Part shown: positions 4,097-35,573 of the stretch, one piece after another
How positions within the stretch are numbered: position 1 is the first letter of the stretch
How the letters are laid out: every line of letters begins with the position of its first letter
DNA from: a virus
Lineage: Duplodnaviria; Caudoviricetes
IMG/VR virus record: IMGVR_UViG_3300037882_002449
Coordinates: 1-35,573 of that record
Length of the DNA: 35,573 nt
Reading direction: 5' to 3' (one strand)
Program-made: the position numbers and the translations under genes
Notes under the pieces: model-generated
Database searches by the model: none
The model's input: the letters and a program-made list of their open reading frames with translations, nothing else
What the model was told of the DNA's origin: nothing

Positions 4097-4118
4097 CCTG
4101 CCACCACCACACCAAGAG

Positions 4119-5227: not shown

Positions 5228-5277
5228 CCAGTCACCCTAGCAAGGTAAAGACAGAGACATCTAACTAACCAGGCACT

Positions 5278-5745: not shown

Positions 5746-5761
5746 GTTCACCCCTAACAAG

Positions 5762-5799
5762 GCCCGCGCTTTGCAGTGATGCAGGGCGCGGGCTTTTTT
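5762..5799 (+). terminator. Rho-independent terminator after capsid genes
   Basis: GCCCGCGCTTTGCA-GTGA-TGCAGGGCGCGGGC then TTTTTT. Confidence 0.9.
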
Positions 5800-5809
5800 G
5801 ATAACCGTT

Positions 5810-9393: not shown

Positions 9394-9793
9394 CTGGAAC
9401 GTCCGAGCCGCAACGGCTGAAGATCACGCGATTTTCTCCGAGTGGTTTGACGCGCACAACGAACCGCGCCCTCCCATGAATTTTCTTCCACCTGACTGCT
9501 ATATCGTAGAGAGAGACGGTGAGCCAGTGCTTACCGCCTCGTTTGCTCTCACCTTAGCAACACCCGTTGCGTATGTGGACTACGTGTGCAGCAGGCCAAA
9601 GACAAGCGGGCTTCTCGTAGCCAAGGCGGTGAAAAAGGCTGTGGCATTTTTTTGGGAAAACCACGGCGGGCCGTATGGGATTATCAGAGGATTAGCCAAA
9701 GGCCCACTAGCCAAGGCAGTGAAGAAAACAGGCGCAACCGTAAACACCAACCCCTCAAACGAAGTCTTTTTTTTATGGCATGGCCAATCGTAA
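9383..9793 (+). CDS. GNAT-like protein (T7 gp13 position)
   Basis: VRAATAED N-terminus typical of GNAT folds; follows nozzle. Confidence 0.6.
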   Translation: MEASWNVRAATAEDHAIFSEWFDAHNEPRPPMNFLPPDCYIVERDGEPVLTASFALTLATPVAYVDYVCSRPKTSGLLVAKAVKKAVAFFWENHGGPYGIIRGLAKGPLAKAVKKTGATVNTNPSNEVFFLWHGQS

Positions 9794-10491
9794 TTGCAGC
9801 CGCATCACTTGCTACAGGCGTAGCAGGCGTGGGCTATAACATCTACCAAAGCAACAAAGCCGCTTCAGCCGCCGAAAGCCAAGGACGCATTCAGCAGATG
9901 CTAGGGCTACAGGCTGCACGCCAGCAGGCCGAGAGCGGCAGGATGCAGAGCCAGATTGCTCTTGCCCAAGCGGAGACGCAGAAACGCGCAGGCATGGCCG
10001 AGGCCGAAAAGCTCCGAGCTGATGCGCGAATCAATGCCGAGATGAGCGTTGAGGAGCAGCGCCGCCAGCGAATTGTTGACCGCAAGTTGCAAGCCTCACA
10101 AGTCGCAGCACAGGCAGCAAGCGGGCTTTCCACCGTGGGCACGCCGCTGGAGGTGATGGCCGAGACTGCTGGGATTCAGCAGCTCCAAATTGTGGAGACT
10201 GCACGACAGCGGGAAGTGGAGCGCAGACAGATTCTCAACCAAGCGCAGGCCGCAGAATACGGAGCTAGCCAGATGGGGGGAACAGCGATTGACGCACAGC
10301 TGCAAGGCATCGCTTCCATAGCTCAGGCGAATCAGACCCGCTACAACGCCATGTTGGCACCGATACAAGCCAAGCTCCAAGGGGCCCAATACAGGGCGCA
10401 GGCTATCGGCTCCGCGCTGTCTGGCATCTCCAGCATGGCAGGCAGCGCTTACCAATTCGGCAGACAAGGCGCATTTACCCGCACAAAATGA
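9775..10491 (+). CDS. Internal virion (ejection) protein, gp14-like
   Basis: Hydrophobic N-terminus MAWPIVIAAASLATGVAGVG, Ala/Gln-rich coil, QAASGL...GTPL motif. Confidence 0.75.
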   Translation: MAWPIVIAAASLATGVAGVGYNIYQSNKAASAAESQGRIQQMLGLQAARQQAESGRMQSQIALAQAETQKRAGMAEAEKLRADARINAEMSVEEQRRQRIVDRKLQASQVAAQAASGLSTVGTPLEVMAETAGIQQLQIVETARQREVERRQILNQAQAAEYGASQMGGTAIDAQLQGIASIAQANQTRYNAMLAPIQAKLQGAQYRAQAIGSALSGISSMAGSAYQFGRQGAFTRTK

Positions 10492-12305: not shown

Positions 12306-15300
12306 CCTCATTCCCGAGGCTGACGCCTTCCTCATAAGCCAGCATATAGACCAGATGCCGGAGGAGAAAAAGGCGCAAGCTGCGGACGTGCTGGGAAGGT
12401 ATCGGCGGCAGCAAGATCGGCTTGGCGTTCCGCTTTTTCCCAATGAGCAGCGCAAGCAGTGGGATGAAACCAAGAGCTTTCTTGGCAGCTTTAACGACCT
12501 CGACGCACTGGACAAGGAAGACGGAATTTATGCTGAGTCTGAGCGACTAGCTCCCGGCACTGGCGTGTCGCTGAAAAAGCAGACGCGGCTAGGGCAGTTC
12601 CTTTCCCGGCGCTACGGAGTGAGTAGCGTTGAAGCGCTCACCAACCCGCTCTACAAAGCCGATTACGCAAACAAAAAAGGGCTCAGCTCTTTCACAGACG
12701 ACACGCTTTTCGACAAAGCGAACGAGGACGTGACGCAGGAGAACAACACGCTGAGCTTCCGCCGTGATCTTCTCAACAAAGCTTATCAGTCAGCCTTCAC
12801 CACGGACAGCACAACGAATGCAGTCTTGGCATGGCAAAACGAAAACAAGGAGCAACCCGGCTACAATGGCGAGCGTGTGAGCGAGTTCATGTCAGCGCAC
12901 ATTCGCGCCCGTGACGTGATGTGGAAAGTAGACGCGGAAGAAGTAGTGAAGGCACTGGCTACGTCAATGCAGGACTCGACAGAGTATGGAACGCCGGGGT
13001 TTCCAGTTGAGGGGAAAGAAGAAGCCGCTGCCAAGATAGAGCAGTTCAAGCGACAGCTACTCACCCTAGACGCCGACGAACGCGCCCTTGCAATCCAAGG
13101 CATCGCGATCAAAGCCGAGGCGCTAGGCAAAGTGGAAGGCGCAGACAAAGACTATATCCAACAGGGAGCAGAAGGCTTTGCGCGTTTGTTCACCGACTTT
13201 GAGGGAAGAAATAGAGAGGTTGCTATTTCCAAGATTGACCCTGCCGCCATAACCCTAGGCACCGAAGAAGTGAAGACCTTGGAGCAGGCCCGTGAAATCT
13301 TGCTGAGCCGCGCAGAATCCGCCGAGCCCATTCCATTCTTACCAGGGAGAGAGTTGCTTGGTGGGGTGAAGAGCGGGCGCTTGCCCACTGAAGCCGAGGA
13401 AGACCTGCTGGCGCAGGCCCAAGCCGAAGAGCTAAGGATGCGCGACATTGAGCTGGAGATAATGTCAGCTCAAGAAGCCGCCGACCCTGTAGGACTAGAC
13501 ACCGCCGGAAAAGTAGCAGCAGGGCTAGGCACTAGCCTTGGACTCATGGCCGGAACTCTAGCCACACGTGGCGCAATCGTGCCAGTGTGGGCTGAGGCTT
13601 TCAGCGCAAACAACTACCGCGAGTTAAGACGTAGCAATCCAGAGATACCAAGGGAAGCCGCTAAGCTAACGGCAGACACCGCAGGAGCGCTAGAGGCAGC
13701 GCTTGAACTCATTGACATTCCAATTGCTAGTAAACTACTAAACGTCAGGCAATTAGTAAAAGGGGGGCTCACTAAGGCGGTGGCCACGCAAGCGGCTCTA
13801 AAGCTTGGAGCAAGCTACGCAGCGGAGAACGTGCAAGAAGCCGTTCAAGACTTGATGCTTCCGCTAATGAAGCAAGCCCTCGCCTCAGACGTGCCGGGGG
13901 TGGACTTTAGCACCGATCTTGACCAATGGGCAAAAGGGCGCGGAATCGTAGCCCTCACCACTATTCCCCTCACCATGATAGGCGCAGGGGTGGCAACATT
14001 CGCAGACTACCAGACAGGCCGCGACCTTGGCAGGCTGGCCGAAGTGCTAGCTCTGAAAGGCGCAAAGCCGCAACTCCAAGAGGCTATTGTGAGCCTAGTT
14101 CAGCAAGGGAAAAGCCAAGAAGCAGACACGCTATGGAAAGCCCAGCAAGAGAACCTTGACAGCGGCATTGCAGACGCCGCAGCGCTGAAATACACCGAGC
14201 TTGCGGATACGATCAAGCAAACTGCGGACGCCCGCAAACGCGCCCAGGAGAAGCTAGTCAGCCGCATCGACTATGACGGGAAGCAGTGGGCTATAAAAAT
14301 GATGGACGGCAGCACCGTGCAAGCCGACAGCATTCAAGCCGTGGACGCCCTGCTGAATGAAGTGGGGCTAGCTCGCAGGCAGGAGGAAGCGTCAATTCTG
14401 ATTGAGGCCGCGCAGTCTGGCCAGCAGCTAGCGTCAAAGGATGAGCGCGTGCAGGCTGAAGTTAGCCTACGCCCAGAACTATTCCGCCTCATGCGGGATG
14501 GCTATATCTCCGTGTATGATCCACGGCTTGGCATGGAGGTCAGCCGTATGGATGCCGCCGGACAGGTGGCCGAGGCGAACGAAGAAGCCAAGCTTCTACC
14601 AGCAGGACAAGGCGGGGACATTCTAGGCGCGATCAACGGATTCACCGAGGAAGAAGCCATTGCCAAAGTAGGAAACGCCACGAAGTCAGTCCTTCGTAAA
14701 ATGTCAGTAGCCACGCCGGGGGATGGCGTTAGGCCGCAAGCCATCACGCTAGCTCACGAAGTGGTGGAGCCCATAATGGTGCAGATGGTCAGAGACGGGA
14801 GAATGACAGAGGCAGGAATGAGGCAGGCCGCTCTTTCCCTCTCCAAGTTCGTCAACCCTGCCCAAATACGCGACAGCGCAGAGAAACAGTTAGCCGAGAA
14901 CCTGCACGCCGTGGCGAAAGGAGAAGGTAGCTGGACGATGCTACGCGAGACGGTGACAGAGTTCATGGTGAGGGATATTCTAGGCCGAGGGAAGAGCGGC
15001 ATCGCCAAGCCGGGGAGCTTTGAGGCTCTGATCTACCAAGCAACAATGGCCGCGCAGACGAAACAGGAAGCGCAAGAGCTTACCAAGCTAGGCAGGCTGC
15101 TAGCAGCGACACGCCGATTCCTAGCGAACATATTCAGGACTGTGGCGATGGTGAACAAAGCCCGCAGATCAGGGCAGGCGGACGACTTCTTTGCCATTAC
15201 CGATGCAGTGCTAGGCACCACAGAGCAGGCTCAATTTGAGCAGGAAGTGAAGCAGGAGCTTGTGCAGGAAATCGAAGGGCTGGACGCAGACCCGTTTAGC

Positions 15301-18300
15301 GTTACGGCACCACGCGCCACGCCGCAGGATGTTAGCAACGTGATACGCCTGCCGGACGGCGCGGAGATGATAGGGCCGACTCTGTTCAGCGTCACCGCCT
15401 ACCACGGCACCCCGCATAAAGTCGATAAGTTCAGCCTTGAAAAAATCGGCACGGGCGAGGGCGCGCAGGCTTACGGGTGGGGGCTTTACTTCGCGGAGAG
15501 CGATGAAGTGGCAAGAACTTATGCCAAAGAAAACACGGCAGCTAGCGGCTACGCTCAAATGGCGTTAGACTTCAAGGGCTCGGCAAAGGAAGCTATCCAA
15601 TATTTGAAATCCGATTCTTGGGATCAATCAAATCAAAGTGTTCAAACAGCTATCAGGCTTTTGCAAACCACTGGAAGCAGTGAAGGCAACCTCTACACCG
15701 TAGAGCTTCTTCCCGATAAAGAAGACTTCCTTGATTGGGACAAGCCGCTGTCAGAGCAGAGTGAGAAGGTGAAGGCTGCGATTGGTTTTGATAACGAGGC
15801 CGCTGTAAAATACAAAGAAATTCAAGCTCGAATGGCCGACCTTATGCGGGAGACGGGAGGGCTTGATTCCGAAGAATGGGACGCGCTTAAACAAGAGGCG
15901 CAAAATATTCGTTCCACAAAAGGGGGGACGCCTCTTCGAGAGGGTTCTGATTTTTATCGAGAACTAGGCGACGCTGAATCAGCGTCTAAAAAGCTCGCAT
16001 CACTCGGCATCTCCGGCATTCGCTACCTAGACGGCAGCAGCCGAGGAGCAGGAGAAGGCACCCACAATTACGTAATCTTCGACGAGAAGCTAGTCAAGAT
16101 CATCGAGGAGAATGGGCAGAAGGTGGAGGAGAGTAGATTTACCGCCAGCATCTCCCCCGCGCAAGACTCCGCTTATCTCGACGCTGTGAAAGCTGGGGAC
16201 ATGGAGACTGCCCAGCGGATGGTGGACGAGGCGGCGAAGGCTGCGGGGTATGATCGAATGCTCTTTCACCAGACGCACAAGAAAAACGTGCCGAAGATTT
16301 ACGCAAAGGGATTTGACCTGAATATCCTCGGAGCGCGTGAATCTGACAATGAAATGCCAGATGGTGTCTTTCTCAAGCCTGACGAAACAAATATTAGAGT
16401 CGGAGCCGCAGACGCAAAAGACATAAGCCAAATGCGGCTTTACGCTCGACTGGAAAACCCGCTGATTTTCAACAACCGCAAAGAGCTGTCTGAGTTCGTT
16501 CAATCGAAAAACCCTGCCTTTGGAAAGACGCAGGCCGAATTTACGAAATCCGACAAGGCAATCGTTGCGGACGTTGATAGACTTGAGGCGGAAGCAATAG
16601 CGTTGCCAAAAGGCAAAGAGCAAGACGCAGCATGGGAGCGATACTTCGCCGAAAGCGACATCATCTTCGAAAAGGGCCGTGCGTCGCTCAACGAGATTGC
16701 CGCGAGAGCGCGAGCAATCGCGACAGCAGCAGTGAGAGCAAGTGCGGACGGGATTATTGTTTACAATGACGCTGGCAGCTTCGGCAGGACTACAACAACG
16801 GTGGTTGCGCTGAATCCATCACAAATAAAATCCGCCGACCCCGTCACCTACGATGAGAACGGCCAAGTGATTCCTCTGAGCCAACGGTTTAACGAGCAGA
16901 GTGACAATATCAATTATAGCATTTCCCCCACCAGCACGCTAGAAAGCCTCAGCTCAGTTTTGCGGTCCAAGCTCGACCGCAACCCAGAGAAGAAGCGGGA
17001 GTATGCCAAGGAAGCGGCTAGACGACTGAAGGCACAAGCCGACAAGTGGAGCACTGACCGCTGGACGCCCAAGGGGGATTTGATTAGACCGCTGAGTGAG
17101 AAGCTGAATAAAGGCGAGCTTGATAAAGAGGAGGCCCGCCGCAGAAAGGCTTTGCGTGAAGAGAAAGACAACATCTTCACGGGAGAGGTGGAGGCGCGCT
17201 TCCAAGGCATTGAGCAGCTTGACCCGAAACTCTGGAACCACACGCTAGCTAGCTACGTGTTCCGCAGGGCAGGAAAAGGGCTACTGCGTGGTAAGATAAT
17301 TAGCCCGCAGAAGTGGAGAGCCCAGCAAGAAGAGCGGGTAATGATGGGTGAAGCTAGCACCATCCCCGGCGACTATGACGGAGCGCAGGACTTGCCCGCT
17401 TGGTTATTCGGTGGAGACGTGGACGCCAACCGAGTTGCAGACACGATATGGAACGACCAAGAGCAGGGCTTACTTTCTCAGCGGATCCTCGCCGAGAACG
17501 ACCCCAATGCACTTTGGGCGGCGATGGCTGACATGCTCAGCACCGTAGAGGGCAACCGTGAGCAGTGGAAGGGATACAGCGAGGAGCTACGCGAGGCTAG
17601 GAACAATGCAGCTACCCAAGCCCGCGAAGAAGCCGCCGCATGGAGAGCCGAGCAGGAAGCGATGCAGGCCAAGAACTGGAGCCCGATGGAAAGCCTGAAG
17701 CGCGACCTGAAGGCCCAAGAGCTAATGCTTGCTGCATTCCCTTCCGCCGTGAGGGAGAAAGCAGGACTTGGATGGGCTAGCCTTGCTGCCTTGAAAAGCG
17801 AGAAGAGCAGGCACAAGGAGCTTTTGAAGCGAGCCGAAAAGCTGGCGGATGCGGTGGAGAGTTATCTGAGGGAAACTTACCGCGAGCAGATCGAAGCCCT
17901 TTTCAACGCAGCCGCTCCAAATAAAGAGGCAGGCAAGAAGCCAACGGCCAAGATAGACGCCACCGTTGGCGACCTCGTAGAAGCGGCAAGGGCCAGCATG
18001 AGCCTAAACCAAGACGAGACGGACGGCAGCCTGGCAGAGCTAGACACGCGCCTAGCTTCCCCAGACATTACGCTGGAGGATGAAGTGAGGCTGCTGGCTG
18101 AGCGGAATCTGGTTGAGCTATTCGGCAACTCCAACCGCATCACCGAGGACACCGGACGGAAGGACAAGAACGGGAAGCCCATCTACCGCACAGCCTACGC
18201 CGGGGCAGATTCCGCGCAGCTAGAGGCCGCGCACGATGCCCTTTATACGTTGGTTGAGCACGGGCTAGCGCTATACCGCGCCAAGACCGAGGCGATACGC

Positions 18301-20304
18301 GCACGCCGCGAAGAGAAGCGGACTAAGTTTAAGGCTCTCACCAACCGCAAAGGCTGGGACTCAGAGGCCGACGAGCTAGCCAAAAACGCCGCTCAGTTTG
18401 GTAGCCGCGCCTTTGACTGGATGCTGGACGGCTCTAGCTTTGAACAGTGGATGTTCTACACTTTCGGAGAGAAAAGCCAGCTAGTACAGGACATCGTGGA
18501 CGAAGAACGCCGCGCATCCTACCAATACGAGGATGCAATTCAACAGGCCCAAGAGCGTATCTCAGATTTATTCACCAAGCTAGCAGGCGGATATGTGCAG
18601 GGGCAAAAACTCCGCTGGGAAATGTCACGCAAAACCGTTGAGGCTACGACTGAGCGGCACGGCACGCGCCAACTAAGCCAGCTAGAAGCTATTCAAGCCT
18701 TGATGATGTGGGCACAGGAGGATGGCAAGCGGCACATGATAGGCAAGGTGGACGAGAACAACCAGCCCGCAGCAGATGCTGGCTGGCATTATGGCCAGCC
18801 GTTTATTGACCAACTAGAAGCCGCTTTAACACCAGAAGCCCGGCAAGTAATGGCGTTTCTACGCGCCGAATACAACGCCGAGCATCCCGTATTGGATGCC
18901 TACTATCGCGAGCGACACAACATAGGGCTTCCTCAGCACGCCAACTATGCGCCTCTTACCGTTGCCCCACAGCAAGCCAAGGCTGGCCAAATGGTTGACC
19001 CCGTAAGCGGAATGAGTTCTAGTAGCTCAGTCCTAACGCCGGGAGCCCTACGAAGCCGGAACAAGAAGGCTTCAGCTCAGCCAGATTTTAGAGACGCCCT
19101 TGTGACCTTCATAGGCCACAATAAGCAAATGGAATACTGGAAGGCTTATTACGACCTAGCCACTGAAGCCCAAGCTGTGTTTGGCTCATTGCCTGTGCGC
19201 AATTCTATTGAGGCTAGAGGAGGCAAACAAATGCTAGCCGTGCTAGATAAATGGCTAGACGTCTTTGCTAAAGGCGGACAGGTGGACACCGCCGCAGGCT
19301 TAGCGATGGCCCAAGACATTAGCCAGATGCAGAGCTTAGGCTCAGCTATGGCCTTGTTTGGCAAGGGCTCCACGCTGCTAGTGCAAGCCACCCAACTAGG
19401 AGCGGCAAGCGTCACCATGCCTACAGCAGCCTACGTAAAGCGGCTTGGAAAGCTGCTCACTGGTAATCTTGGTTGGAAGGACGCGGTTAACTCGCCATTC
19501 ATCCAACGCCGCATAAAGTCCGGCCCGCCTATCATCCGGCAAATCATGGGGCGCTTAGCTACTGCTACCGAGCCTAATCAACTCAAAGAGCTCATGCACC
19601 GCGCAGGCCAAACGCTGAGCGCAGCAGACGGTATTTTCACAGGCGGCACATACGCCATCGTTTACGACTACCAACTTGAGCAGGCGAAGGCCATGCAGAT
19701 AGTTGACCCTGAAGACTACGCGCACAAAGAAACCGAGCGGATAGTTGAGCGCATAGCTCAGCCTACGCGCAAAGCCACGCGCTCCATTTTCGAAGTTGCG
19801 GCAGTTGGCCCAGGGTGGAGCACTGCCCTAGCTTTCGGCTCAGAGGCCCGCCAGAAGTTCGCTCTGTTCTCATGGGCTGCTTACAATGCGAAGAAGAATC
19901 CCGCTCAATTTGCGAAAGTTGCGTTCCTCGCAGTGGTTCTAAACGGCATAGGCTCCCACCTGCTGAAGTCACTTTGGAAAGCTCTGATCGGCAAAGACGA
20001 CGACGAAGTTTTGAGCCCTTCAACGCTGGCGCTAGCTGGAATCAATGGCCTAGCTGGGGGTATGCCAGTAACCAAGCTGCTATTCGGGGAAGACTCCGTG
20101 CTTGCATCGTTTGGCCGAGGCAAGGAAGCCATCCAGAAAATAGCCAAGGGAGACGCGGAAGCAGAAGACGCTTGGCAGATCGTGCAGGCCATCCTTGCAG
20201 CGGCAGGCTTATTCAACGAGAATGCCGCGAGCCTGAAAGTATTGAGCCAAGCGGGGCACGAAGGCTCTTCAATTCTCCTACCAGATAAAAACCAAAACAA
20301 ATGA
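12295..20304 (+). CDS. Giant internal virion / large polyvalent protein with two ART-like domains
   Basis: 2669 aa in the gp16 position; AYHGTPH..F....IGTGEGAQAYGWGLYFA and YLDAVKAGDMETAQRMVDEAAKAAGY..FHQT...QIKSADPVTYD motifs. Confidence 0.85.
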   Translation: MPSNLIPEADAFLISQHIDQMPEEKKAQAADVLGRYRRQQDRLGVPLFPNEQRKQWDETKSFLGSFNDLDALDKEDGIYAESERLAPGTGVSLKKQTRLGQFLSRRYGVSSVEALTNPLYKADYANKKGLSSFTDDTLFDKANEDVTQENNTLSFRRDLLNKAYQSAFTTDSTTNAVLAWQNENKEQPGYNGERVSEFMSAHIRARDVMWKVDAEEVVKALATSMQDSTEYGTPGFPVEGKEEAAAKIEQFKRQLLTLDADERALAIQGIAIKAEALGKVEGADKDYIQQGAEGFARLFTDFEGRNREVAISKIDPAAITLGTEEVKTLEQAREILLSRAESAEPIPFLPGRELLGGVKSGRLPTEAEEDLLAQAQAEELRMRDIELEIMSAQEAADPVGLDTAGKVAAGLGTSLGLMAGTLATRGAIVPVWAEAFSANNYRELRRSNPEIPREAAKLTADTAGALEAALELIDIPIASKLLNVRQLVKGGLTKAVATQAALKLGASYAAENVQEAVQDLMLPLMKQALASDVPGVDFSTDLDQWAKGRGIVALTTIPLTMIGAGVATFADYQTGRDLGRLAEVLALKGAKPQLQEAIVSLVQQGKSQEADTLWKAQQENLDSGIADAAALKYTELADTIKQTADARKRAQEKLVSRIDYDGKQWAIKMMDGSTVQADSIQAVDALLNEVGLARRQEEASILIEAAQSGQQLASKDERVQAEVSLRPELFRLMRDGYISVYDPRLGMEVSRMDAAGQVAEANEEAKLLPAGQGGDILGAINGFTEEEAIAKVGNATKSVLRKMSVATPGDGVRPQAITLAHEVVEPIMVQMVRDGRMTEAGMRQAALSLSKFVNPAQIRDSAEKQLAENLHAVAKGEGSWTMLRETVTEFMVRDILGRGKSGIAKPGSFEALIYQATMAAQTKQEAQELTKLGRLLAATRRFLANIFRTVAMVNKARRSGQADDFFAITDAVLGTTEQAQFEQEVKQELVQEIEGLDADPFSVTAPRATPQDVSNVIRLPDGAEMIGPTLFSVTAYHGTPHKVDKFSLEKIGTGEGAQAYGWGLYFAESDEVARTYAKENTAASGYAQMALDFKGSAKEAIQYLKSDSWDQSNQSVQTAIRLLQTTGSSEGNLYTVELLPDKEDFLDWDKPLSEQSEKVKAAIGFDNEAAVKYKEIQARMADLMRETGGLDSEEWDALKQEAQNIRSTKGGTPLREGSDFYRELGDAESASKKLASLGISGIRYLDGSSRGAGEGTHNYVIFDEKLVKIIEENGQKVEESRFTASISPAQDSAYLDAVKAGDMETAQRMVDEAAKAAGYDRMLFHQTHKKNVPKIYAKGFDLNILGARESDNEMPDGVFLKPDETNIRVGAADAKDISQMRLYARLENPLIFNNRKELSEFVQSKNPAFGKTQAEFTKSDKAIVADVDRLEAEAIALPKGKEQDAAWERYFAESDIIFEKGRASLNEIAARARAIATAAVRASADGIIVYNDAGSFGRTTTTVVALNPSQIKSADPVTYDENGQVIPLSQRFNEQSDNINYSISPTSTLESLSSVLRSKLDRNPEKKREYAKEAARRLKAQADKWSTDRWTPKGDLIRPLSEKLNKGELDKEEARRRKALREEKDNIFTGEVEARFQGIEQLDPKLWNHTLASYVFRRAGKGLLRGKIISPQKWRAQQEERVMMGEASTIPGDYDGAQDLPAWLFGGDVDANRVADTIWNDQEQGLLSQRILAENDPNALWAAMADMLSTVEGNREQWKGYSEELREARNNAATQAREEAAAWRAEQEAMQAKNWSPMESLKRDLKAQELMLAAFPSAVREKAGLGWASLAALKSEKSRHKELLKRAEKLADAVESYLRETYREQIEALFNAAAPNKEAGKKPTAKIDATVGDLVEAARASMSLNQDETDGSLAELDTRLASPDITLEDEVRLLAERNLVELFGNSNRITEDTGRKDKNGKPIYRTAYAGADSAQLEAAHDALYTLVEHGLALYRAKTEAIRARREEKRTKFKALTNRKGWDSEADELAKNAAQFGSRAFDWMLDGSSFEQWMFYTFGEKSQLVQDIVDEERRASYQYEDAIQQAQERISDLFTKLAGGYVQGQKLRWEMSRKTVEATTERHGTRQLSQLEAIQALMMWAQEDGKRHMIGKVDENNQPAADAGWHYGQPFIDQLEAALTPEARQVMAFLRAEYNAEHPVLDAYYRERHNIGLPQHANYAPLTVAPQQAKAGQMVDPVSGMSSSSSVLTPGALRSRNKKASAQPDFRDALVTFIGHNKQMEYWKAYYDLATEAQAVFGSLPVRNSIEARGGKQMLAVLDKWLDVFAKGGQVDTAAGLAMAQDISQMQSLGSAMALFGKGSTLLVQATQLGAASVTMPTAAYVKRLGKLLTGNLGWKDAVNSPFIQRRIKSGPPIIRQIMGRLATATEPNQLKELMHRAGQTLSAADGIFTGGTYAIVYDYQLEQAKAMQIVDPEDYAHKETERIVERIAQPTRKATRSIFEVAAVGPGWSTALAFGSEARQKFALFSWAAYNAKKNPAQFAKVAFLAVVLNGIGSHLLKSLWKALIGKDDDEVLSPSTLALAGINGLAGGMPVTKLLFGEDSVLASFGRGKEAIQKIAKGDAEAEDAWQIVQAILAAAGLFNENAASLKVLSQAGHEGSSILLPDKNQNK

Positions 20305-28835: not shown

Positions 28836-29776
28836 GCTGGGTGAAGTTTAACAGCACGTTACTCACGTCACCAAAGGTGTCACGCATTCACCAACTCGTT
28901 ACGTCACGCGTTATAACGACCGTTACAGATGGCCGCAACACGCGTTACAATGAGCCCATAACGCGTGATAACATCGTTATAGGGCTGATGCGGTTTTGGC
29001 TCACCTTGAACGAGCATATCAGGGGTGAAGTGTTACACCACGCGTCACGCGTTACGGCGGATGAGTGGAGCCAGATAACAGGCATGGGCGAGGCCATGGA
29101 AGCCGTGGGCTGGCTCAAGCAAACCACTGATGAGAATGGAGCGCAGCGCCTTGTTTTTCAAGGGTTTGGCGAGCACAACACGTCTTCAGAAGAGAGGGCT
29201 AAAACGACCGCAGCGGAGAGGCAGAAAGCCTACAGGGAAAGGAAGAAAAAGGAGGCTCAGCATTCTTCCCCTGATAACGAAGCGTTACATAACAGTGACG
29301 TAACGCGTAACGTAACGGTCGTTACGAAAAGTGATGTAGATAAGAGAAGAGAAGAGAAGAATAGAATAGACAACAATACTGATCCACACACACAACGCGC
29401 AGGCGCGCACGTGCAAGAGGTCATGTTTCCCGATCCAAGGGAATACCCGACCTTGGCCGAAGTGGAGCAGTGGGCAGAGTCAACCTTGACGCCCAAAGAG
29501 TGCGCTGCCAAATGGCACGCCAGCCACGAGGCTAAGGCCAGCCCTTGGACTGACAACCAAGGCAAGCCGCTCACTACTGACAAAGCTCGACTGCGGAACC
29601 TGTTTGCCACCTACGCCACCGCATGGAAGGCAAACGCCACAAAGGACAGAACGCCCAACGGAAGCAGCTACAAAACCCCACCACCCGACGACAGAGGAAT
29701 CAACTGGAGAACGCCCAGCTTGGAAGACATACGGAAAATGACCCCAGAGGAAAAGAAACGCATTAGCCAATTTTAG
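28832..29776 (+). CDS. Replication initiator (lambda O/DnaT-like)
   Basis: MSWVK...L..SPKV, GLMRFW, AMEAVGWL, AERQKAYRERKK, DKRREEKNRID linker; followed by DnaC-like gene. Confidence 0.85.
   Translation: MSWVKFNSTLLTSPKVSRIHQLVTSRVITTVTDGRNTRYNEPITRDNIVIGLMRFWLTLNEHIRGEVLHHASRVTADEWSQITGMGEAMEAVGWLKQTTDENGAQRLVFQGFGEHNTSSEERAKTTAAERQKAYRERKKKEAQHSSPDNEALHNSDVTRNVTVVTKSDVDKRREEKNRIDNNTDPHTQRAGAHVQEVMFPDPREYPTLAEVEQWAESTLTPKECAAKWHASHEAKASPWTDNQGKPLTTDKARLRNLFATYATAWKANATKDRTPNGSSYKTPPPDDRGINWRTPSLEDIRKMTPEEKKRISQF
29273..29326. repeat. Iteron-like cluster (putative replication origin)
   Basis: GATAACGAAGCGTTACATAACAGTGACGTAACGCGTAACGTAACGGTCGTTACG followed by an A-rich tract. Confidence 0.65.
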
Positions 29777-29778
29777 CC

Positions 29779-30591
29779 ATGAGTGAACCAATCAGATTAT
29801 TCAGCCGGGGCGACTTTGACGCCAAACACAAAGCTATGGTAGCAGTTATTGACGCCAAAGAGCGGAGGCTAGACGGCTTCCCCGCTGCCAGCGTATGCCC
29901 TGAGCACGGAGTAACAACTGTGCTTGACCGTGACCGCAGCCTGCACAGCGATTTCCCCATTTACACGTGCAGCGCCTGCGTTGAGCAGGACAGGGGGCGT
30001 AGGCGCGACGAATTGAAAATCGCAGCAGGGATACCGGAGGACGTGTTGAGCGCCACGCTAGACGCCTTCCAGACGCAGCGCGGAGGCATTGAGCTGGGAA
30101 GCCCAGAGGATTTTTTGAGAAAAGCCAGAAGACTAGCCGCTGGCGAGATACGCAACTTGATACTCTGCGGAAGCCCAGGTATAGGCAAGGGGCACATTGC
30201 CGCAGCCATCGCCGGCGAACGGATAGCGAGAGGGCGCAGCGTTCGCTGGGTGTCATGCAGCCAACTTTTTAGGCAGTGGCACAGAGCCTACCCTACCAAC
30301 AGCAATGACGCGATAGCCGAGCGTTACGGCTCATGCTCGCTGCTAGTGCTCGATGAGTGCGGGCTGAGGGAGCTTCCAAAAGACGGGGAGGAATGCCTGT
30401 TTGAGATTTTTGACATGAGGCAGAAACGAGGGCTTCAGAGCATTTTGCTAGGCAACATGCAGCTGGAAAGCTTCAAGACTTGGATAGGCGAGCGGATACG
30501 CGACCGCTTAAACGTGGGCAGCGTAGCGTTTTCCTATGGGGCATGGGACAGCTTCCGGCCATTGCAAGCAGACGCAGAGAACCGCATCTAG
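29779..30591 (+). CDS. DnaC/IstB-like AAA+ helicase loader
   Basis: CPEHG...CSAC Zn motif, Walker A GSPGIGKGH, Walker B LLVLDE, GERIRDRL. Confidence 0.9.
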   Translation: MSEPIRLFSRGDFDAKHKAMVAVIDAKERRLDGFPAASVCPEHGVTTVLDRDRSLHSDFPIYTCSACVEQDRGRRRDELKIAAGIPEDVLSATLDAFQTQRGGIELGSPEDFLRKARRLAAGEIRNLILCGSPGIGKGHIAAAIAGERIARGRSVRWVSCSQLFRQWHRAYPTNSNDAIAERYGSCSLLVLDECGLRELPKDGEECLFEIFDMRQKRGLQSILLGNMQLESFKTWIGERIRDRLNVGSVAFSYGAWDSFRPLQADAENRI

Positions 30592-30631
30592 CACGTATTG
30601 ACAACCTAGAGAACTCATGCAACTTACCCGC

Positions 30632-30787
30632 ATGGCAAAAGAAATCAGGACCACGTGGCTTCAAGTGCGGATGAACACCGCAGAGAAGGCCCAGCTACGC
30701 AAAGAGGCGCGCAGAGAGGGCGTGAATATGAGCAAGCTGGTATTGCGGAGAGCGCTTGCGGAACCTGCACAGGAGCATTTGAAATGA
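30632..30787 (+). CDS. Ribbon-helix-helix DNA-binding protein (51 aa; not in the ORF track)
   Basis: Hand translation MAKEIRTTWLQVRMNTAEKAQLRKEARREGVNMSKLVLRRALAEPAQEHLK; ATGA-coupled to terS. Confidence 0.75.
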   Translation: MAKEIRTTWLQVRMNTAEKAQLRKEARREGVNMSKLVLRRALAEPAQEHLK

Positions 30788-31311
30788 AAACCGGAGTTAA
30801 AGGCCAGCGCCACAGGCTGCACGAATGCGAGGATGGAAGCGTCCCGGTTCAGTGGCCGGAGTTTGAGCGCTACTGCGTGCTTATAGCTAAGGGGGAAATG
30901 ACCGACACCGAGGCTTACAAGCAAGCGGTTGACCCGGCAGCAAACCAAAAACGGCTTTCGTCCATGACGAGCCGTTACAAGAAAATCTACGCTAAACGCA
31001 TTGAATGGCTACGCGAAAGGCTGAACGAGCTAGCGGCTCAGCACGCAGATGAAGAGCTTCTTTCTGTGGTGGAGAAACGGAAGTTCTGCGCCCAAGTAGT
31101 CCGCGCCAAAATTGGCGAGCTAGACGGCAGCTCAAACTTGGTTGAAGAATACTCAGAAGGAGAGAGCGGCACGCGTGTTAAAATGCCTAGCAAGCTGGCC
31201 GCCATTAAAATGGACAACGATCTCGCAGGCGAAGGAGCCGAGGCGGAAAGCCAGAAGGCTGGAATTGATTCTCTAGCTGAACTTTTGAGAGCTATCAGGA
31301 GGAAAGCATGA
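30784..31311 (+). CDS. terS: Terminase small subunit
   Basis: ERYC..IAKG...TEAYKQA HTH-like region, RIEWLR, KMPSKLAAIK; upstream of terL; start at ATG 30784. Confidence 0.75.
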   Translation: MKTGVKGQRHRLHECEDGSVPVQWPEFERYCVLIAKGEMTDTEAYKQAVDPAANQKRLSSMTSRYKKIYAKRIEWLRERLNELAAQHADEELLSVVEKRKFCAQVVRAKIGELDGSSNLVEEYSEGESGTRVKMPSKLAAIKMDNDLAGEGAEAESQKAGIDSLAELLRAIRRKA

Positions 31312-31652
31312 GCCTAGACCCAAAAGGCGAAGCAGGCAAAAGGAAGGCTCAGCTCCAACTGCTGCCGCCAGTCTTCAATTCGGCTACGGCCAAGGCTCTA
31401 GAAAATGGAGCCGCCAAGTATGGCCCTTGGAACTGGCGCGAGTCAGACAAAGTGAGCGCCCTAACCTACGTGGGAGCAATCCGCCGACACCTCGACGCAT
31501 ACCTAGACGGAGAGGACATTGACAAAGAAAGCGGAGCGCCCCACTTGGGCCACATCGCTGCTAACTGCGCCATTTTACTGGACGCCCAGGAACACGGCCC
31601 GCTTCACGACGACAGACCACAACGCAAGACACCAAGGAAGGAAAGCCTATAA
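31308..31652 (+). CDS. dATP/dGTP diphosphohydrolase (DUF5664-like)
   Basis: K..L.LLPP, GAAKYGPWNWR, AIRRHL.AY.DGEDID.ESG.PHLGHIAAN..IL. Confidence 0.9.
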   Translation: MSLDPKGEAGKRKAQLQLLPPVFNSATAKALENGAAKYGPWNWRESDKVSALTYVGAIRRHLDAYLDGEDIDKESGAPHLGHIAANCAILLDAQEHGPLHDDRPQRKTPRKESL

Positions 31653-31729
31653 AGCCTAGCGCCCTCACATCCAGCGAGCTAGCCGAGTGGCAGCAGAGGA
31701 CGGCCAGAGACAGGCCGTTCGCTGAGGCT

Positions 31730-33232
31730 ATGGCAGACCCGCTATGGAGAATTTCTTGGCTCTACAAGATCAAAGACGAGCGGGGAAAGGTGATAGCTTT
31801 TGAGCCTTCTACTGAGCAAGTCGTGGTGATATGCGTGGTGCATCTGAGGAAGTGGAGAAGGGTGCTGATTCCCAAGGCCAGACAGCTTTGGATGAGCACA
31901 GCGCTAAGCGTCATCTGCCTAGACCAGTGCTTATTTCAGGAGGGCTTTGCCGCTGCCTGCATCGATAAAACAGCAGAGGACGCCGCCAAAAAGCTGCGGG
32001 ATAAAGTGTTGTTAGCATGGGAGCAACTGCCCGCCCCGCTAGTTAGTCAATACGAGTTACCCAGCGGCTACGCGCCAAAGGGCATAGGCTGGAAAATCCA
32101 CGGCTCAGAGGAAGCGCCCAGCTCATTCAGTGCAGGCGCTTCCTTCCGTGGTGGCCAGCTCCAATTTCTTTGGATTAGTGAATGGGGGGCGATCCAGATG
32201 GAAGAGGCGAAACGCTCAGAAGAAATCCTGACTGGCTCATTGCCAGCAGCAGAGCAGGGAACGACCGTAATTGAAACCACTTGGCGCGGAGGCAAGGGGG
32301 GCGACCTTTGGCCTATCGCCGAAGAGGCTATGCAGCCGGAGGAGCAGAAAGGCCCGACTAGCTGGAGACTTCTTTTCTTTCCATGGTGGATTGCCCCGAA
32401 ATACTCCCAGACGTGGGGAGCGATCGACGAACTTTCTGCCGCTTACTTTGCCAAGCTCGAAGCGGAGGAAGGCATAAAGCTAAGCCAAGAGCAAAAGCTG
32501 TGGTATGCCGGACAGCGCAGGACTAACCCGCGAAAAGTGAAAGAGGAATATCCTAGCACTCTGGCCGAATGCTGGGAGGCACCAGTTGCAGGCGCGATCT
32601 GGGGCGACCAAGTGGCGAAGGCTCACGCAGAAGGGCGCGTTGCCAACTTTCCCGTTGACGGGAGAGTTCCGGTTCATTGTTCATGGGACTTGGGTAGCTC
32701 TCTCAACACCGTGGTGTGGTATTTCCAGAGGATGCCAAACGGCTTCACGCGCTTCATTGACGTGGATTACAAGTTAGAAATGACCCTGCCCCAGCGAGCG
32801 GCTTGGATGAAGGCCAAGGGCTACAACTACGGCACTCACTACCTGCCACACGATGCCAACCAGGAGAGGCACGGCACCACCTTCTTCAAGGACTGGCAAG
32901 CCATAGCCCGCGAGCACGGCATAGGAGGGGCGCGAGTCGTCCCTGTGACGCTGGAGAAATGGCACGGCATCGACTACACTACGCAGCTTTTCCCCTCGTT
33001 TGAATTCAGGCTTCCGGCCTGTGAGAAAGGGCTAGAAGGGCTAGCGGCCTACCGCAGACAGCCGCAGAAAGCTAATGGGGTGATAGTGGACGAGCCCGTT
33101 CACGACTGGGCATCTCACACCGCAGACGGCTTACGGACGATGGCGGAGGCAGACAAAGCTGGGCTTGTCCAAGGCTTCCGCAACTCGCCAATGCAGGTTC
33201 AGAATAATATTGTATTGACAAATTGCGTATAA
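31730..33232 (+). CDS. terL: Terminase large subunit
   Basis: DP.WR...LYKI, IPKARQLWMST, LWISEW, IETT, FFPWW, WDLG, HYLPHD, PVHDWASHTADGLR. Confidence 0.95.
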   Translation: MADPLWRISWLYKIKDERGKVIAFEPSTEQVVVICVVHLRKWRRVLIPKARQLWMSTALSVICLDQCLFQEGFAAACIDKTAEDAAKKLRDKVLLAWEQLPAPLVSQYELPSGYAPKGIGWKIHGSEEAPSSFSAGASFRGGQLQFLWISEWGAIQMEEAKRSEEILTGSLPAAEQGTTVIETTWRGGKGGDLWPIAEEAMQPEEQKGPTSWRLLFFPWWIAPKYSQTWGAIDELSAAYFAKLEAEEGIKLSQEQKLWYAGQRRTNPRKVKEEYPSTLAECWEAPVAGAIWGDQVAKAHAEGRVANFPVDGRVPVHCSWDLGSSLNTVVWYFQRMPNGFTRFIDVDYKLEMTLPQRAAWMKAKGYNYGTHYLPHDANQERHGTTFFKDWQAIAREHGIGGARVVPVTLEKWHGIDYTTQLFPSFEFRLPACEKGLEGLAAYRRQPQKANGVIVDEPVHDWASHTADGLRTMAEADKAGLVQGFRNSPMQVQNNIVLTNCV

Positions 33233-33242
33233 TGGCTAGGGT
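33215..33242 (+). promoter_or_regulatory. Putative promoter heading the cassette array
   Basis: TTGACA-16 nt-TAGGGT, also TATAAT at 33228-33; ATG at 33250. Confidence 0.55.
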
Positions 33243-33249
33243 GGGGTCT

Positions 33250-33480
33250 ATGAGCGAAACATTCACCCGCCCCTGCCCCAACTGCGAGGACTGGCGGTAC
33301 GTCCCAGACCCAACCGAGCGCGAAACCTGCCCGCTGTGCAAAGGCGATCTGTATCAATGCACCGTGTGCGAGCTGGGTATCACAGATTGTGACTGCGATC
33401 ACGCAGGGATGGAGCTTGAGATGGTGAACGATTTAGCGCACTCACAGAAGGGGCGGGAGCAAGGCACTGACAACACTTAA
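33250..33480 (+). CDS. Cys-rich Zn-finger-like protein (first array gene)
   Basis: CPNC...CPLC...CTVC...CDC; tail VNDLAHSQKG encoded by the first attC-like site. Confidence 0.7.
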   Translation: MSETFTRPCPNCEDWRYVPDPTERETCPLCKGDLYQCTVCELGITDCDCDHAGMELEMVNDLAHSQKGREQGTDNT

Positions 33481-33551
33481 GACTAAGTCTATGGAAAACA
33501 ATATCGAAAACTCATCGGCCCCTTCTGTTGATCTGCCGCGCCTTGTTCGCA
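33423..33551 (-). mobile_element. attC-like recombination site A
   Basis: + strand GGTGAAC..GCGCA..CACAGAAGGGGC pairs GCCCCTTCTGTTG..TGCCGC..TTGTTCGCA. Confidence 0.75.
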
Positions 33552-33745
33552 AATCTTCGTACGTTGTGATGAAAATCATTCAAGGATGGCACGATCATTG
33601 GGATATTCATTGCGTCTGCGAAGACCAAAAAACTGCAAAAGCTGAATGCGATCTCCGAAACACAAAGGCGGTATCCAACCGATACTTTGTGACGAGGGTT
33701 CCTTTTATTGCGAACGCCACAGCGCAGACACAGCAGGGGCGGTAG
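33491..33745 (+). CDS. Cassette gene, hypothetical protein
   Basis: Leader ...LPRLVR, tail ANATAQTQQGR; body bounded by GTTCGCAA (33545) and TTGCGAAC (33708-15). Confidence 0.75.
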   Translation: MENNIENSSAPSVDLPRLVRKSSYVVMKIIQGWHDHWDIHCVCEDQKTAKAECDLRNTKAVSNRYFVTRVPFIANATAQTQQGR

Positions 33746-33754
33746 AACATACTT

Positions 33755-34279
33755 ATGAAAGACCTGCATACTCCAGTCGAGCCAAAGCAACTTCACCCAA
33801 TGTTGCTGGACGACGCGCAAATCGGCAACATTGTCGCCTTCGACTGCCGCGAAAGAATGCTTACCGTCCAAGTTGACGAAATGCCCAGTGGCATCTTGCC
33901 AGGTCACAGACTCGGAGCGCGGGCAATCCTAGTGTTTTTACCGAAGAACGGCCATTCAACACCGAAGCCAAAAACCAATGAAGTGCCGCCAGCCAAGGCG
34001 GTTGACCCTGCGACACCCTTGTTCGGCACTTGGCAGCCCATCGCTACCATACCGGATGGGGTGGAAGTCCTCGCAACCTGCGGCGGCATCTGTAGCCCTG
34101 CGGTGGTACTATGGAGCGAGTTGGAGCAATGCTGGATAGATGGCGATAATGACGATCGAAGGACAGAGAGAGATGATTGGCCGCTTACGCACTGGATGCC
34201 GCTACCTGATCCGCCGAACGTCCAAGCTCACGGCGATGCCGGGGGCGAGAAACCAACAACGAACGAATCAAACCCATGA
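33755..34279 (+). CDS. Fused cassette gene; C-terminal DUF551-like domain
   Basis: WQPIATIP...THWMPLPDPP; internal degenerate site about 33943-34027. Confidence 0.75.
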   Translation: MKDLHTPVEPKQLHPMLLDDAQIGNIVAFDCRERMLTVQVDEMPSGILPGHRLGARAILVFLPKNGHSTPKPKTNEVPPAKAVDPATPLFGTWQPIATIPDGVEVLATCGGICSPAVVLWSELEQCWIDGDNDDRRTERDDWPLTHWMPLPDPPNVQAHGDAGGEKPTTNESNP

Positions 34280-34343
34280 ATCAGAATCCACCAGATAGTA
34301 CCACTACGCCCCGCTCTGTTGACCAGCAGCAGGCTTGTTCGGC
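34213..34343 (-). mobile_element. attC-like site D (hybrid arms)
   Basis: GCCGAAC...TTGTTCGGC; loop and right arm nearly identical to site E, left arm poorly complementary. Confidence 0.65.
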
Positions 34344-34605
34344 TTTTTGGACGCCCGCAACAACCAAGCCGGGAGGGTGGGAACGAAAGGTTCTTTGCTG
34401 GGTGGTCTGGCCGGAATGCGGCTGGCCTTCACCGCCAGAACCGATAATCGGATGGTGGAAGCATGGGCCGGAATGCTTTGCTGTGGAATCGGTAGAGCAC
34501 GCAAACCATCTCGTTACGCACTGGGCCGAGATACCGGAGCCGAACGTCCCTGCTCTGGCACAGAGCGGGGGAGAGAAAACATCAACAAAGGAATCAGACT
34601 CATGA
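34276..34605 (+). CDS. Cassette gene, DUF551-like
   Basis: WTPA...VLCW...VTHWAEIPEP; bounded by GTTCGGCT and AGCCGAAC. Confidence 0.75.
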   Translation: MNQNPPDSTTTPRSVDQQQACSAFWTPATTKPGGWERKVLCWVVWPECGWPSPPEPIIGWWKHGPECFAVESVEHANHLVTHWAEIPEPNVPALAQSGGEKTSTKESDS

Positions 34606-34669
34606 ATCAGAATCAACTCAATGATGCCACTGCGCCCCGCTCTGTTGTCCAGCAGCAGGCTTGTTCGGC
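34539..34669 (-). mobile_element. attC-like site E
   Basis: GCCGAAC GTCCCTGCTCTGGCACAGAGCGGGG pairs CCCCGCTCTG(T)TG(T)CCAG(C)AGCAGGCTT GTTCGGC. Confidence 0.85.
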
Positions 34670-34862
34670 TGCGTTTATTATATTTTACGCAGAACGTTCC
34701 TGCTCTGGCGACGGAGGGATATTCACCTCGCTGGAGGATTTCATTCCATATCGTCGGCAAGGATGGAGCGGCACCCAAGAGGCCAATGCCGCCGCTGACG
34801 CAATGATTGTGGCGATGGACGAGGCGAACGATCAAGCGCAGCCAGCGCGAGCACATGAGTAA
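34602..34862 (+). CDS. Cassette gene, hypothetical (probable deletion fusion)
   Basis: ATG 34602 overlapping the upstream TGA; AAADAMIVAM motif; contains site remnant at 34689. Confidence 0.6.
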   Translation: MNQNQLNDATAPRSVVQQQACSAAFIIFYAERSCSGDGGIFTSLEDFIPYRRQGWSGTQEANAAADAMIVAMDEANDQAQPARAHE

Positions 34863-34913
34863 ATCAAACACACAGGAGCCAGCCGAGCGCTTGGCTGCGG
34901 TGCCTTGTTCGCC
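34823..34913 (-). mobile_element. attC-like site F
   Basis: GGCGAAC..CGCAGCCAGCGC pairs GCGC(T)TGGCTGCG..TTGTTCGCC. Confidence 0.8.
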
Positions 34914-35160
34914 GACGCCCGCAGCAGAGGCGAAGCGGGAAATGACAATGATGACATGGATGGCCACAGAAGGCGGGAGGAAGTGCCCAGCGTGCGGCAA
35001 ATACGCGAAGGCCGAGCATCTCGGTTTCACGGGCGGCTACTCCAACATAGGAGGCTCTGTCGTGCATGTCAGCTCCTACGGGCATCTTCCTGGCCACGGA
35101 TGTAATCAGTCGGCGAACGATCAAACTCTGCCGACCGAAGGGGCGGCGCAAGACTCATGA
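34855..35160 (+). CDS. Cassette gene, Zn-ribbon-like protein
   Basis: CPACGK...H...C; bounded by GTTCGCCGAC and GTCGGCGAAC. Confidence 0.75.
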   Translation: MSKSNTQEPAERLAAVPCSPTPAAEAKREMTMMTWMATEGGRKCPACGKYAKAEHLGFTGGYSNIGGSVVHVSSYGHLPGHGCNQSANDQTLPTEGAAQDS

Positions 35161-35214
35161 AAACAGAAACGACTACATCCGCCCCGAAGGTTGGCAGCAG
35201 TGCCCTTGTTCGGG
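35112..35214 (-). mobile_element. attC-like site G
   Basis: GGCGAAC..ACTCTGCCGACC-GAA-GGGGCGG pairs CCGCCCC-GAA-GGTTGGCAG(C)AGT..TTGTTCGGG. Confidence 0.85.
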
Positions 35215-35474
35215 CTTTTAGGGTGGACGTTGCAGACTGGCCCGAGGCCACTGGCATCGTCCGCACAACCAGCCCGGCAAAAGCAAAGTTTGCAGCGTGG
35301 AGAGGAGCTAAAGATGCGGGGTATGATCTGCCCTTCGCTCGCTTCAAAGCACGGCGAGCACCCGAGTATGACGGCAACACGGCGCTCATCGCTGGCCGCA
35401 ACTACGATCTCGAATACGCCACGGCGGCGGATAGCCCGAACGACAAAGGCCAGCCACGGGCGGATAAGACATAG
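35157..35474 (+). CDS. Cassette gene, hypothetical protein
   Basis: Leader ...VGSSALVR, body with AKAK...RRAPEYD, tail PNDKGQPRADKT; bounded by GTTCGGGCT and AGCCCGAAC. Confidence 0.8.
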   Translation: MKTETTTSAPKVGSSALVRAFRVDVADWPEATGIVRTTSPAKAKFAAWRGAKDAGYDLPFARFKARRAPEYDGNTALIAGRNYDLEYATAADSPNDKGQPRADKT

Positions 35475-35522
35475 ATTTCAGACAGGACGTTGCTGCCCGT
35501 TGGCTGCGCCGACTTGTTCGAC
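35435..35522 (-). mobile_element. attC-like site H (terminal)
   Basis: CCCGAAC..GGCCAGCCACGGGCGG pairs CTGCCCG(T)TGGCTG(C)GCC..TTGTTCGAC. Confidence 0.85.
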
Positions 35523-35573
35523 CCCGAGCGGAGGGCTTCCGCAGTAACCGTATAGACCCAAGACAATGACAAC

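Follow-up and report, generated by a model that had tools for sequence, protein, structure and literature searches.

According to the part of Bouvier et al. (2009, PMC2727003) drawn on here, the attC sites of bacterial integrons have AAC/GTT cores, a spacer of 5-6 nt, a length of 57-142 nt, extra bases on one arm at about G16, T20 and T24, an extended R-box pairing that spans 9-11 nt, and a crossover between A and C. The extra bases stand on the R''-L'' arm, their position sets the strand that is recombined, and this choice of strand normally puts the cassette gene under the promoter Pc. Clusters of attC sites lacking integron-integrases (CALINs), defined in the relevant part of PMC4889954 as two or more attC sites within 4 kb on one strand without the integrase gene intI, also occur in phages. 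Qi et al. (2023, PMC9892861) found 17 phage CALINs in 10,705 genomes, none reported in the portion of their text used here as being of Verrucomicrobiota type, and five of the six phage attC sites tested recombined with the integrase IntI1. Here we consider an array of such sites in the final 2.2 kb of IMG/VR virus record IMGVR_UViG_3300037882_002449 (Duplodnaviria; Caudoviricetes), whose whole linear sequence of 35,573 bp, about 90% complete, is called the window below. We think it quite probable that this is an integrase-less, inverted and frame-locked phage attC array, made of hairpin-plus-downstream-gene units that break at AAC and probably served by an IntI acting in trans.

By our own detector the array has five intact sites in 2.1 kb, all of one polarity and without intI, and so is a CALIN. 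It shares with the phage CALINs, as portrayed in the same portion of Qi et al., the attC cluster without intI, the DNA methyltransferase cargo and the proposal of a host IntI. With the attC sites of Bouvier et al. it has in common all the features listed in our opening sentence, and it differs from that description in three ways: it has C as the first extra base, GTTC as the core, and a bottom-strand gene lying downstream of its site, opposite to the placement that normally brings a gene under Pc. Uniform inversion, predicted loop-borne starts and a fixed Asn frame, which mark the window array, are not reported in that portion of Qi et al. The literature searched, in which subscription journals are thinly covered so that absence is unproven, gave no published account of uniformly inverted, frame-locked phage cassettes.

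A first-pass annotation of the sequence had claimed that each cassette's own two ends are complementary. The array has nine left cores (GAAC at 33426, 33712, 33946, 34216, 34542, 34692, 34826, 35115 and 35438) and seven right cores (GTTC at 33545, 34021, 34337, 34663, 34907, 35208 and 35516). The five end pairs that had been quoted lie where they were placed and are exact reverse complements of 8, 7, 8, 10 and 9 bp (cassette A ends in GTTCGCAA and TTGCGAAC, cassette C in GTTCGGCT and AGCCGAAC, cassette F in GTTCGCCGAC and GTCGGCGAAC), and the core mismatches given within sites A, G and H are also correct. When the five pairs are permuted, the true pairing alone reaches the observed summed run length (1/120); on a count of matches over 3 or 6 bases the figure is 2/120. 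Outside the array, none of 45 GTTC..GAAC pairs spaced 100-300 nt reaches 7 bp. The claim thus stands for five of six intervals (7-10 bp) and fails for the sixth, from GTTC 34663, which had been omitted; with this interval included, P = 4/720. Also omitted was the internal complementarity of sites C, D and F (7, 8 and 7 bp); within the window alone the contrast therefore rests on A, G, H and the broken site B2.

Three pattern scans of viral contigs, with patterns derived from the window sites and from locus L018 and fixing at most one base beyond GTT, gave 149 loci with related arrays. Sites were called with a symmetric hairpin detector, whose false sites number 2 in 40 shuffled loci, or about 0.009 per kb of shuffled DNA; it defined 172 unique intervals in 61 loci, the window left out. 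Across the interval, 123 of the 172 show perfect complementarity of the four bases beyond GTT; the within-site figure is 16 of 229. Shuffled pairings give a mean of 8.8 and a maximum of 21 in 5000 against the 123 observed, and shuffling within arrays gives a mean of 38 and a maximum of 59 against 110 of 156. Complementarity within cassettes is therefore far better than in shuffled pairings across many such arrays, which is the comparison that the annotation had proposed. It fades by about the seventh base beyond GTT in the viral set, which agrees with the pairing of 9-11 nt given by Bouvier et al. The same offset rule holds in 24 of 27 bacterial intervals and in all three of L267, a near-identical relative of the window phage (8, 8 and 10 bp). 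L018:1270-4623, with ten consecutive intact sites and matched ends at all nine intervals, is a cleaner model array than that of the window.

Offset complementarity is in itself a textbook property of attC sites, and the complementary ends are likely to be the scar left by integron integrase when it inserts folded single-stranded circles. The annotation's view of the offset as an integron footprint is right in so far as the pattern is one that cassette insertion leaves; the pattern is blind to polarity, and it is no proof of present circles. Its suggestion to fold in-silico circles joined at AA|C gave a similarly divided result: most sites gain stability, but joining at G|TT does likewise, and since circles joined at either core fold better, the offset cannot assign a hairpin to a gene. 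Complementary ends taken alone also resemble terminal inverted repeats. One might then suppose that the GTTC...GAAC stretches are tiny elements bounded by such repeats, or that the hairpins are terminators or REP (repetitive extragenic palindromic)-like repeats. We find these suppositions barely credible. Beyond GTT the end sequences vary from cassette to cassette, 60 ORF (open reading frame) scans gave no transposase, and the unit boundaries contradict such elements, the mobile unit including the hairpin upstream of GTTC. Terminators and REP-like repeats, which the annotation had already argued against, are likewise unsupported: a terminator scan gave 2 hits against 3.1 expected, neither of them a full site, and Rfam at E up to 5 over 30000-35573 gave no match.

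Which hairpin belongs to which gene is settled by cassettes shared between arrays. In all five informative cross-array pairs (three cassette groups; a sixth pair, being the same array twice, was left out) the upstream site is kept, with an identity of 0.83-1.0, and the downstream site is not (0.60-0.66, background 0.61). The shared cassettes diverge no more than a few bases from AAC at both ends, and they decide for a break at AA|C and for the upstream hairpin as that of the gene. Cassette G of the window recurs in an unrelated phage, L150, with 93% identity over 330 nt; the homology, upstream hairpin included, begins at the GAAC of site G and ends at that of site H. Seven of eight cassette G homologues share the loop-encoded leader and the body as far as Ser-Pro-Asn (SPN), after which the tails all differ. 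Cassette G is a mobile unit bounded by AAC at each end.

The sites face backwards relative to their genes. In each of the five intact sites (A, D, F, G and H) the extrahelical bases stand in the 3' arm on the + strand, which is the gene strand, a C near positions 3-5 and a T near 10-12. Because of the site layout, the R''-L'' arm is the 3' arm on the bottom strand; extra bases in the 3' arm on + thus make + the bottom-like strand, and + is also the coding strand. The window cassettes are non-canonical: the gene is on the bottom-like strand and its own site is ahead of it. Neighbouring viral sites agree in polarity in 160 of 172 intervals, disagree in 4 and have one side unclear in 8. In attC sites the bottom strand folds more stably than the top; in the window it does so in six of six cases (five of six and one tie with longer flanks), and among bacterial sites in 32 of 38, but the viral set as a whole shows no such bias. 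Polarity is decided by the arm with the extra bases, the shared cassettes, the gene strand in bacteria and the side on which intI lies. Could these nevertheless be ordinary bacterial cassettes in normal orientation, each a gene followed by its own attC, with a crossover at G|TT on the gene strand? The genes do run GTT...AAC between sites, G|TT-joined circles also fold better for G and H, and the published TJE1 CALIN is of that type. The TJE1 CALIN of Qi et al., as we checked, is unlike the window: on the gene strand it is the 5' arm that carries the extra bases, and its sites come after the genes. With the extra bases of the window in the opposite arm, the upstream hairpin travelling with the gene in L150 and in the cassette G homologues, and genes in host arrays of the same attC family facing the other way, we grant this possibility almost no probability.

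Arrays of this attC family are found mostly in records of Verrucomicrobiota, a phylum listed as integron-bearing in the parts of PMC4889954 and PMC8618304 used here. A genome scan gave 85 matches, most of them due to chance, 14 of which had two or more sites; from these multi-site matches and 15 fetched contigs we chose by hand 11 chromosomal-type loci and 7 prophage-like or short-IntI loci. In the former, 19 of 27 intervals have an opposite-strand gene and 4 a same-strand gene, with 4 ties; in the latter the corresponding numbers are 0, 6 and 7 of 13. TIGR02249 scores above cut-off in 7 of 11 chosen genomes, and in six contigs integrases of this class adjoin attC arrays of the same family. 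The sedentary chromosomal integrons of Verrucomicrobiota resemble the window in a right arm ending CTTGTT, in a first extra base that is C, G or T, and in the offset rule. They differ from it in their top-strand genes and adjacent intI, the phage array being inverted and having none. Judging from these sequence likenesses, a Verrucomicrobiota host probably supplies IntI in trans. Two of these integrons, L252 and L254, have intI facing the array (the inverted-integrase type) and group together in the IntI tree described below. In a Luteolibacter contig (L263:1405-1853, the same as L229) a truncated integron integrase (TIGR02249 positions 2-106) stands beside an inverted array, in the position usually occupied by intI.

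The phage itself has no detectable integrase. PF00589 (tyrosine recombinase) gave no match in the phage at E up to 1, its control being positive in 14 of 14 genomes, and an IntI profile built here gave none in the window or L267, between which an unsequenced gap lies inside the array. With no intI beside its array, the window does not hold a complete integron. The L267 contig is 98.9% identical to window positions 1-10519 and has 1,934 nt extra ahead of position 1, with the three further sites, of the same polarity as those of the window, whose matched ends were given above. Its cassettes include a DNA methylase (PF01555) and a Mom-family protein (PF25680). The last cassette ends at AAC; the letters that follow, AGTATGATATGA, stop its gene and overlap the ATG with which the next core gene begins. 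AACAGT starts this hairpin-less junction and likewise that of L150; it is also found at 7 of the 12 ends of IntI-flagged loci and, beside intI, in the bacterial integron L255. The window itself has no attI site. Because AACAGT is common to intI-adjacent ends, we read the junction as attI-like. Damaged sites of the window cluster in the half of the array farthest from it, which fits growth at this end. If the genome is circularly permuted, the array would have the terminase region on one side and the head genes on the other, and would have broken the assembly there.

L150 offers another view of such an end. At L150:1469-2403 a single cassette is inserted in the last codons of a core gene; this gene now ends in a hairpin-encoded tail, and the cassette gene ends Asn-Ser-stop at the AACAGT junction. 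Cassettes can also land at a bare GWT triplet by attG insertion (bioRxiv 10.1101/2022.09.11.507474, in the part used here), a process that could seed arrays in phage genes. The hairpin-less ends described here are unlike attG in that they have the longer AACAGT-type motif, and are more attI-like; we dropped the idea of L150 as a random attG insertion, its end carrying this motif.

IntI-like genes are present in 18 of 153 viral loci (17 contigs), three of the matches being weak fragments, and most of the viral sequences displayed have what we take to be the IntI-specific insertion. In 16 of 17 cases the viral intI is on the predicted attI side and strand. A guess based on these cases, that intI lies just past the contig end, was refuted for L267. 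A tree of 24 IntI proteins (matches below 190 bits or 300 aa were left out) spreads the viral ones over several groups, one of seven rows having six viral members (100/99), and does not support a single phage IntI clade. A promoter scan found no convincing site in the array; since the window genes read towards the attI-like end, a Pc at attI could not express them.

How, then, are the cassette genes read? AAC is an in-frame Asn codon at eight of the nine window junctions, the exception being remnant E, and GTT falls in phases 0, 2, 1, 1, 1 and 0, that is, in all three. A fixed frame for AAC and any phase for GTT are what one would expect of an exchange at AAC, with GTT inside the unit. Each ORF of the window array ends in the following loop; at A, C, D, F and G this loop also holds the next ATG, with ATGA overlaps at C, D and G. 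Of 170 viral intervals, 165 have a stop within the downstream site when read in the AAC frame, and 80 in each of the other two frames. Where the viral AAC frame is open across the whole body (83 intervals), 72 have an ATG in the upstream site, 45 of these as ATGA overlaps. From this sequence pattern we predict start codons and translational coupling at the loops. Class 1 integrons, in the part of PMC8876359 used here, are similar in that translation across recombination sites aids the downstream gene; there, separate short ORFs (ORF-11 in attI1, ORFs inside attC) help normally oriented genes. The window is different: a cassette protein is predicted to take its N-terminus from its own hairpin and its C-terminus from the next, and the codon at the crossover is fixed in frame.

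All parts of the array are on the + strand, which carries nearly all window genes. Intact hairpins are confined to A, D, F, G and H (pairing scores 20-31, lengths 88-131 nt); B1, B2, C and E have no paired arms in the arm-score matrix, and four of nine junctions are thus damaged. A small ORF of 76 aa (33250..33480), following the terminase-like gene (31730-33232), forms the left boundary; it crosses the AAC of site A as Asn and takes its final 16 residues and stop from that site. Site A (33423..33551) is an intact attC-type hairpin with extra bases C, C and T in the 3' arm, and its loop carries a stop and the next ATG (33491). Its hairpin family recurs in L101 at 84%, and exactly at 33426 other contigs attach different DNA to it (loose ends in X3 and X5). 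Cassette A (33429..33714, 286 bp), the predicted unit from C to AA, consists of hairpin A and an 84-aa ORF (33491-33745). At site B1 (33709..33745) the A-family left arm stands alone, the right arm being lost. A fused ORF of 174 aa (33755..34279; Pfam PF04448, DUF551) follows, in which a gene ending at AAC 33947 is joined in frame to the DUF551 cassette gene across the damaged site B2 (33943..34027). The latter has the core GAAC 33946 and a right arm to GTTC 34021, its left arm being deleted; L265 holds an intact site with a similar right arm. Here an X3 contig has 27 additional letters at 33950-33975, and an X1 contig runs into a hairpin arm past 33954. The piece 33755-33949 is a widespread phage gene whose last Asn codon acts as the junction. 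Its depth in X1, X3 and X5 is several times that of the phage DNA around it, and all four sequencing runs covered give it another upstream neighbour.

Site C (34213..34343) is chimeric: its left arm pairs with no right arm, its right arm is D-family, and its loop has an ATGA stop/start overlap at 34276. Cassette C (34219..34544, 326 bp) has a 109-aa ORF (34276-34605). Site D (34539..34669) is intact, with extra C, T and T in the 3' arm and an ATGA overlap at 34602; its family occurs in L002, L003, L005, L006, L007 and L008 at 84-90%, each time with different neighbours. An 86-aa ORF (34602..34862), likely a deletion-derived fusion, runs from loop D over remnant E into site F; it lies across the interval whose ends fail to match. 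Site E (34689..34720) is a decayed D-family left arm only, and has the sole out-of-frame AAC. The loop of the intact site F (34823..34913) has a stop at 34860 and an ATG at 34855, where the 101-aa Cys-containing ORF (34855-35160) of cassette F (34829..35117, 289 bp) begins; past 35119, one X3 contig runs into a different arm. Site G (35112..35214) is intact, with an extra C in the 3' arm and an ATGA overlap at 35157, and its family is also found in L175, a prophage-like Luteolibacter contig. Cassette G (35118..35440, 323 bp) combines hairpin G with a 105-aa ORF (35157-35474), whose stop is in the loop of the intact site H (35435..35522); this site has an extra C and T in the 3' arm and a loop without ATG. 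Only the start of the following cassette body (35516..35573) precedes the contig end. Its opening 30 nt are common to an L265 cassette that closes with a 9-bp complementary core. The two also share a short stem, GCGGA-GGGCT-TCCGC, at 35525-35540, and the gene of that L265 cassette begins inside the body, not in the loop. A metagenome scan with the 30 nt following site H gave one short contig with a different array, and no extension of the window array.

Part of the array has been reshaped by homologous recombination rather than by site-specific exchange. The sequencing data are 4 of the 24 listed runs, all as assembled contigs, from which rare variants drop out; no RNA run was among those listed. 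The best-supported joint, in an X1 contig, sits within 15 identical bases of two right arms, which is a mark of homologous recombination; X1 may be near the source population and is not independent. One could go further and regard the hairpins as portable homology or translation modules, moved mainly by Red-like shuffling of the phage without any site-specific recombinase. The X1 joint, the chimeric site C and the recurrence of hairpin families at 84-91% identity would all be at home in such a scheme. Yet shared cassettes break at AAC, where neighbours have only about 3-6 bases in common, and shuffling of this kind leaves unexplained both the 7-10 bp complementarity of ends 170-230 nt apart and the attI-like ends with adjacent intI genes. 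We therefore judge it very improbable.

A more serious alternative is that the array is a relic, built by IntI in the past, on which no integrase acts now, so that all change comes from deletion and homologous recombination. Neither the window nor the far end of the array as seen in L267 holds an intI, four of nine junctions are damaged, the population variant observed has a homology-type joint, and the phage encodes a Bet-like protein and an exonuclease. Against this, sites F, G and H and the three of L267 are intact with ends matched over 8-10 bp, the cassette G copy in an unrelated phage is 93% identical with AAC-precise ends, and loose ends at 33426, 34542 and 35119 in X1, X3 and X5 coincide with left cores. 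A relic is thus possible, but we consider it unlikely.

Several observations weigh against an array of the kind that we favor, an inverted and frame-locked one with IntI acting in trans. No circle junction or precise excision was found in the assembled contigs of the four runs, the listed joints all being skips, and the X1 joint removes 326 nt, from 34306 to 34633, not at AA|C. The sixth interval of the window (GTTC 34663) mismatches both 34692 (run of 4) and 34826 (run of 5), and 49 of the 172 viral intervals are not perfect. The first extrahelical base is C at A, D, G and H (F is not resolved) and not the near-universal G, and the core GTTC departs from GTTR (GTTRRRY). On this last point, the GTTC core and C base are also found in host arrays (first extra base C in 15 and G in 8 of 40 sites), and a G16-to-C change in attC costs 2.7-fold, base identity being called non-essential in the part of PMC2727003 used here. 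Viral sites lack the folding bias (105 against 117 of 227), and a coarse measure of ORF strand is tied in 91 of 170 viral intervals (67 bottom, 12 top). No more than 83 of the 170 have an AAC frame that stays open throughout the body. The position of intI in L058 does not fit, this being the one case in 17. The far end of the array is known from a relative only, across the unsequenced gap, and the array of that relative may differ; the host, finally, is assigned by attC likeness alone.

If the favored reading is correct, events might proceed as follows. A host IntI in trans would fold the + strand and excise hairpin-plus-gene circles. In the circle, the two ends would form one fully paired R box, of which the matched ends in the array would be the split halves. 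IntI would cut at AA|C, and the unit would be inserted either at the attI-like junction that closes the array on the right or at another site. Each gene would read into the following hairpin, stop in its loop and hand the ribosome to the next ATG, often through ATGA. With an Asn codon at every AAC, the operon should stay translatable whatever the order of its genes. Sites of greater age would decay, or would be rejoined by homologous recombination, probably via the Bet-like protein and exonuclease of the phage.

The rest of the window encodes a portal, capsid, nozzle, CHAP endolysin, replication initiator and DnaC-like loader, besides the Bet-like annealing protein and the exonuclease. A blastn search against 50,697 GenBank phages found 24 records, each matching only 29-34 nt of the DUF551 gene, and a terminase-based search of viral contigs recovered no relative. 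A polyvalent protein of 2669 aa (12295-20304) has an ART-PolyVal ADP-ribosyltransferase domain at residues 1035-1095. The N-terminal domain of a dATP/dGTP diphosphohydrolase (PF18909) lies at 31308-31652, adjoining the terminase; together with the methylase and Mom cassettes of L267 it hints at modified DNA. The replication initiator gene contains long inverted repeats (28897-28926 and 29301-29338) and TAACG/CGTTA repeats, which are probably the origin, and in this region our hairpin detector calls one isolated false site. The sequence GTATTGAC occurs four times in the window (0.35 expected), on + at 451-458, 30595-30602 and 33212-33219 and on - at 32046-32053. All three + copies directly precede gene starts, one of them also preceding the array, and it may be a phage promoter element.

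Beyond this locus, we lean, if only slightly, towards a broader view: a mirror-image integron system in phages of Verrucomicrobiota and other hosts. It would have a phage-only pool of bottom-strand cassettes, an Asn-fixed crossover, hairpins and attI that serve as stop/start couplers, and some phage-borne IntI lineages; integrase-less phages such as the present one would borrow the IntI of a host or of a co-infecting phage and so gather anti-restriction genes (methylase, Mom) at an operon's far end. The window hairpins have undergone integron-type recombination, wired backwards, and the array shows that protein-coding sequence can run through a recombination site defined by structure. If the system is active, it would be a site-specific route to phage mosaicism, in which small accessory genes, DNA-modifying anti-restriction genes among them, are exchanged between unrelated phages with translation intact. 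It would also account for the many small phage proteins that have leaders in common and tails that vary.

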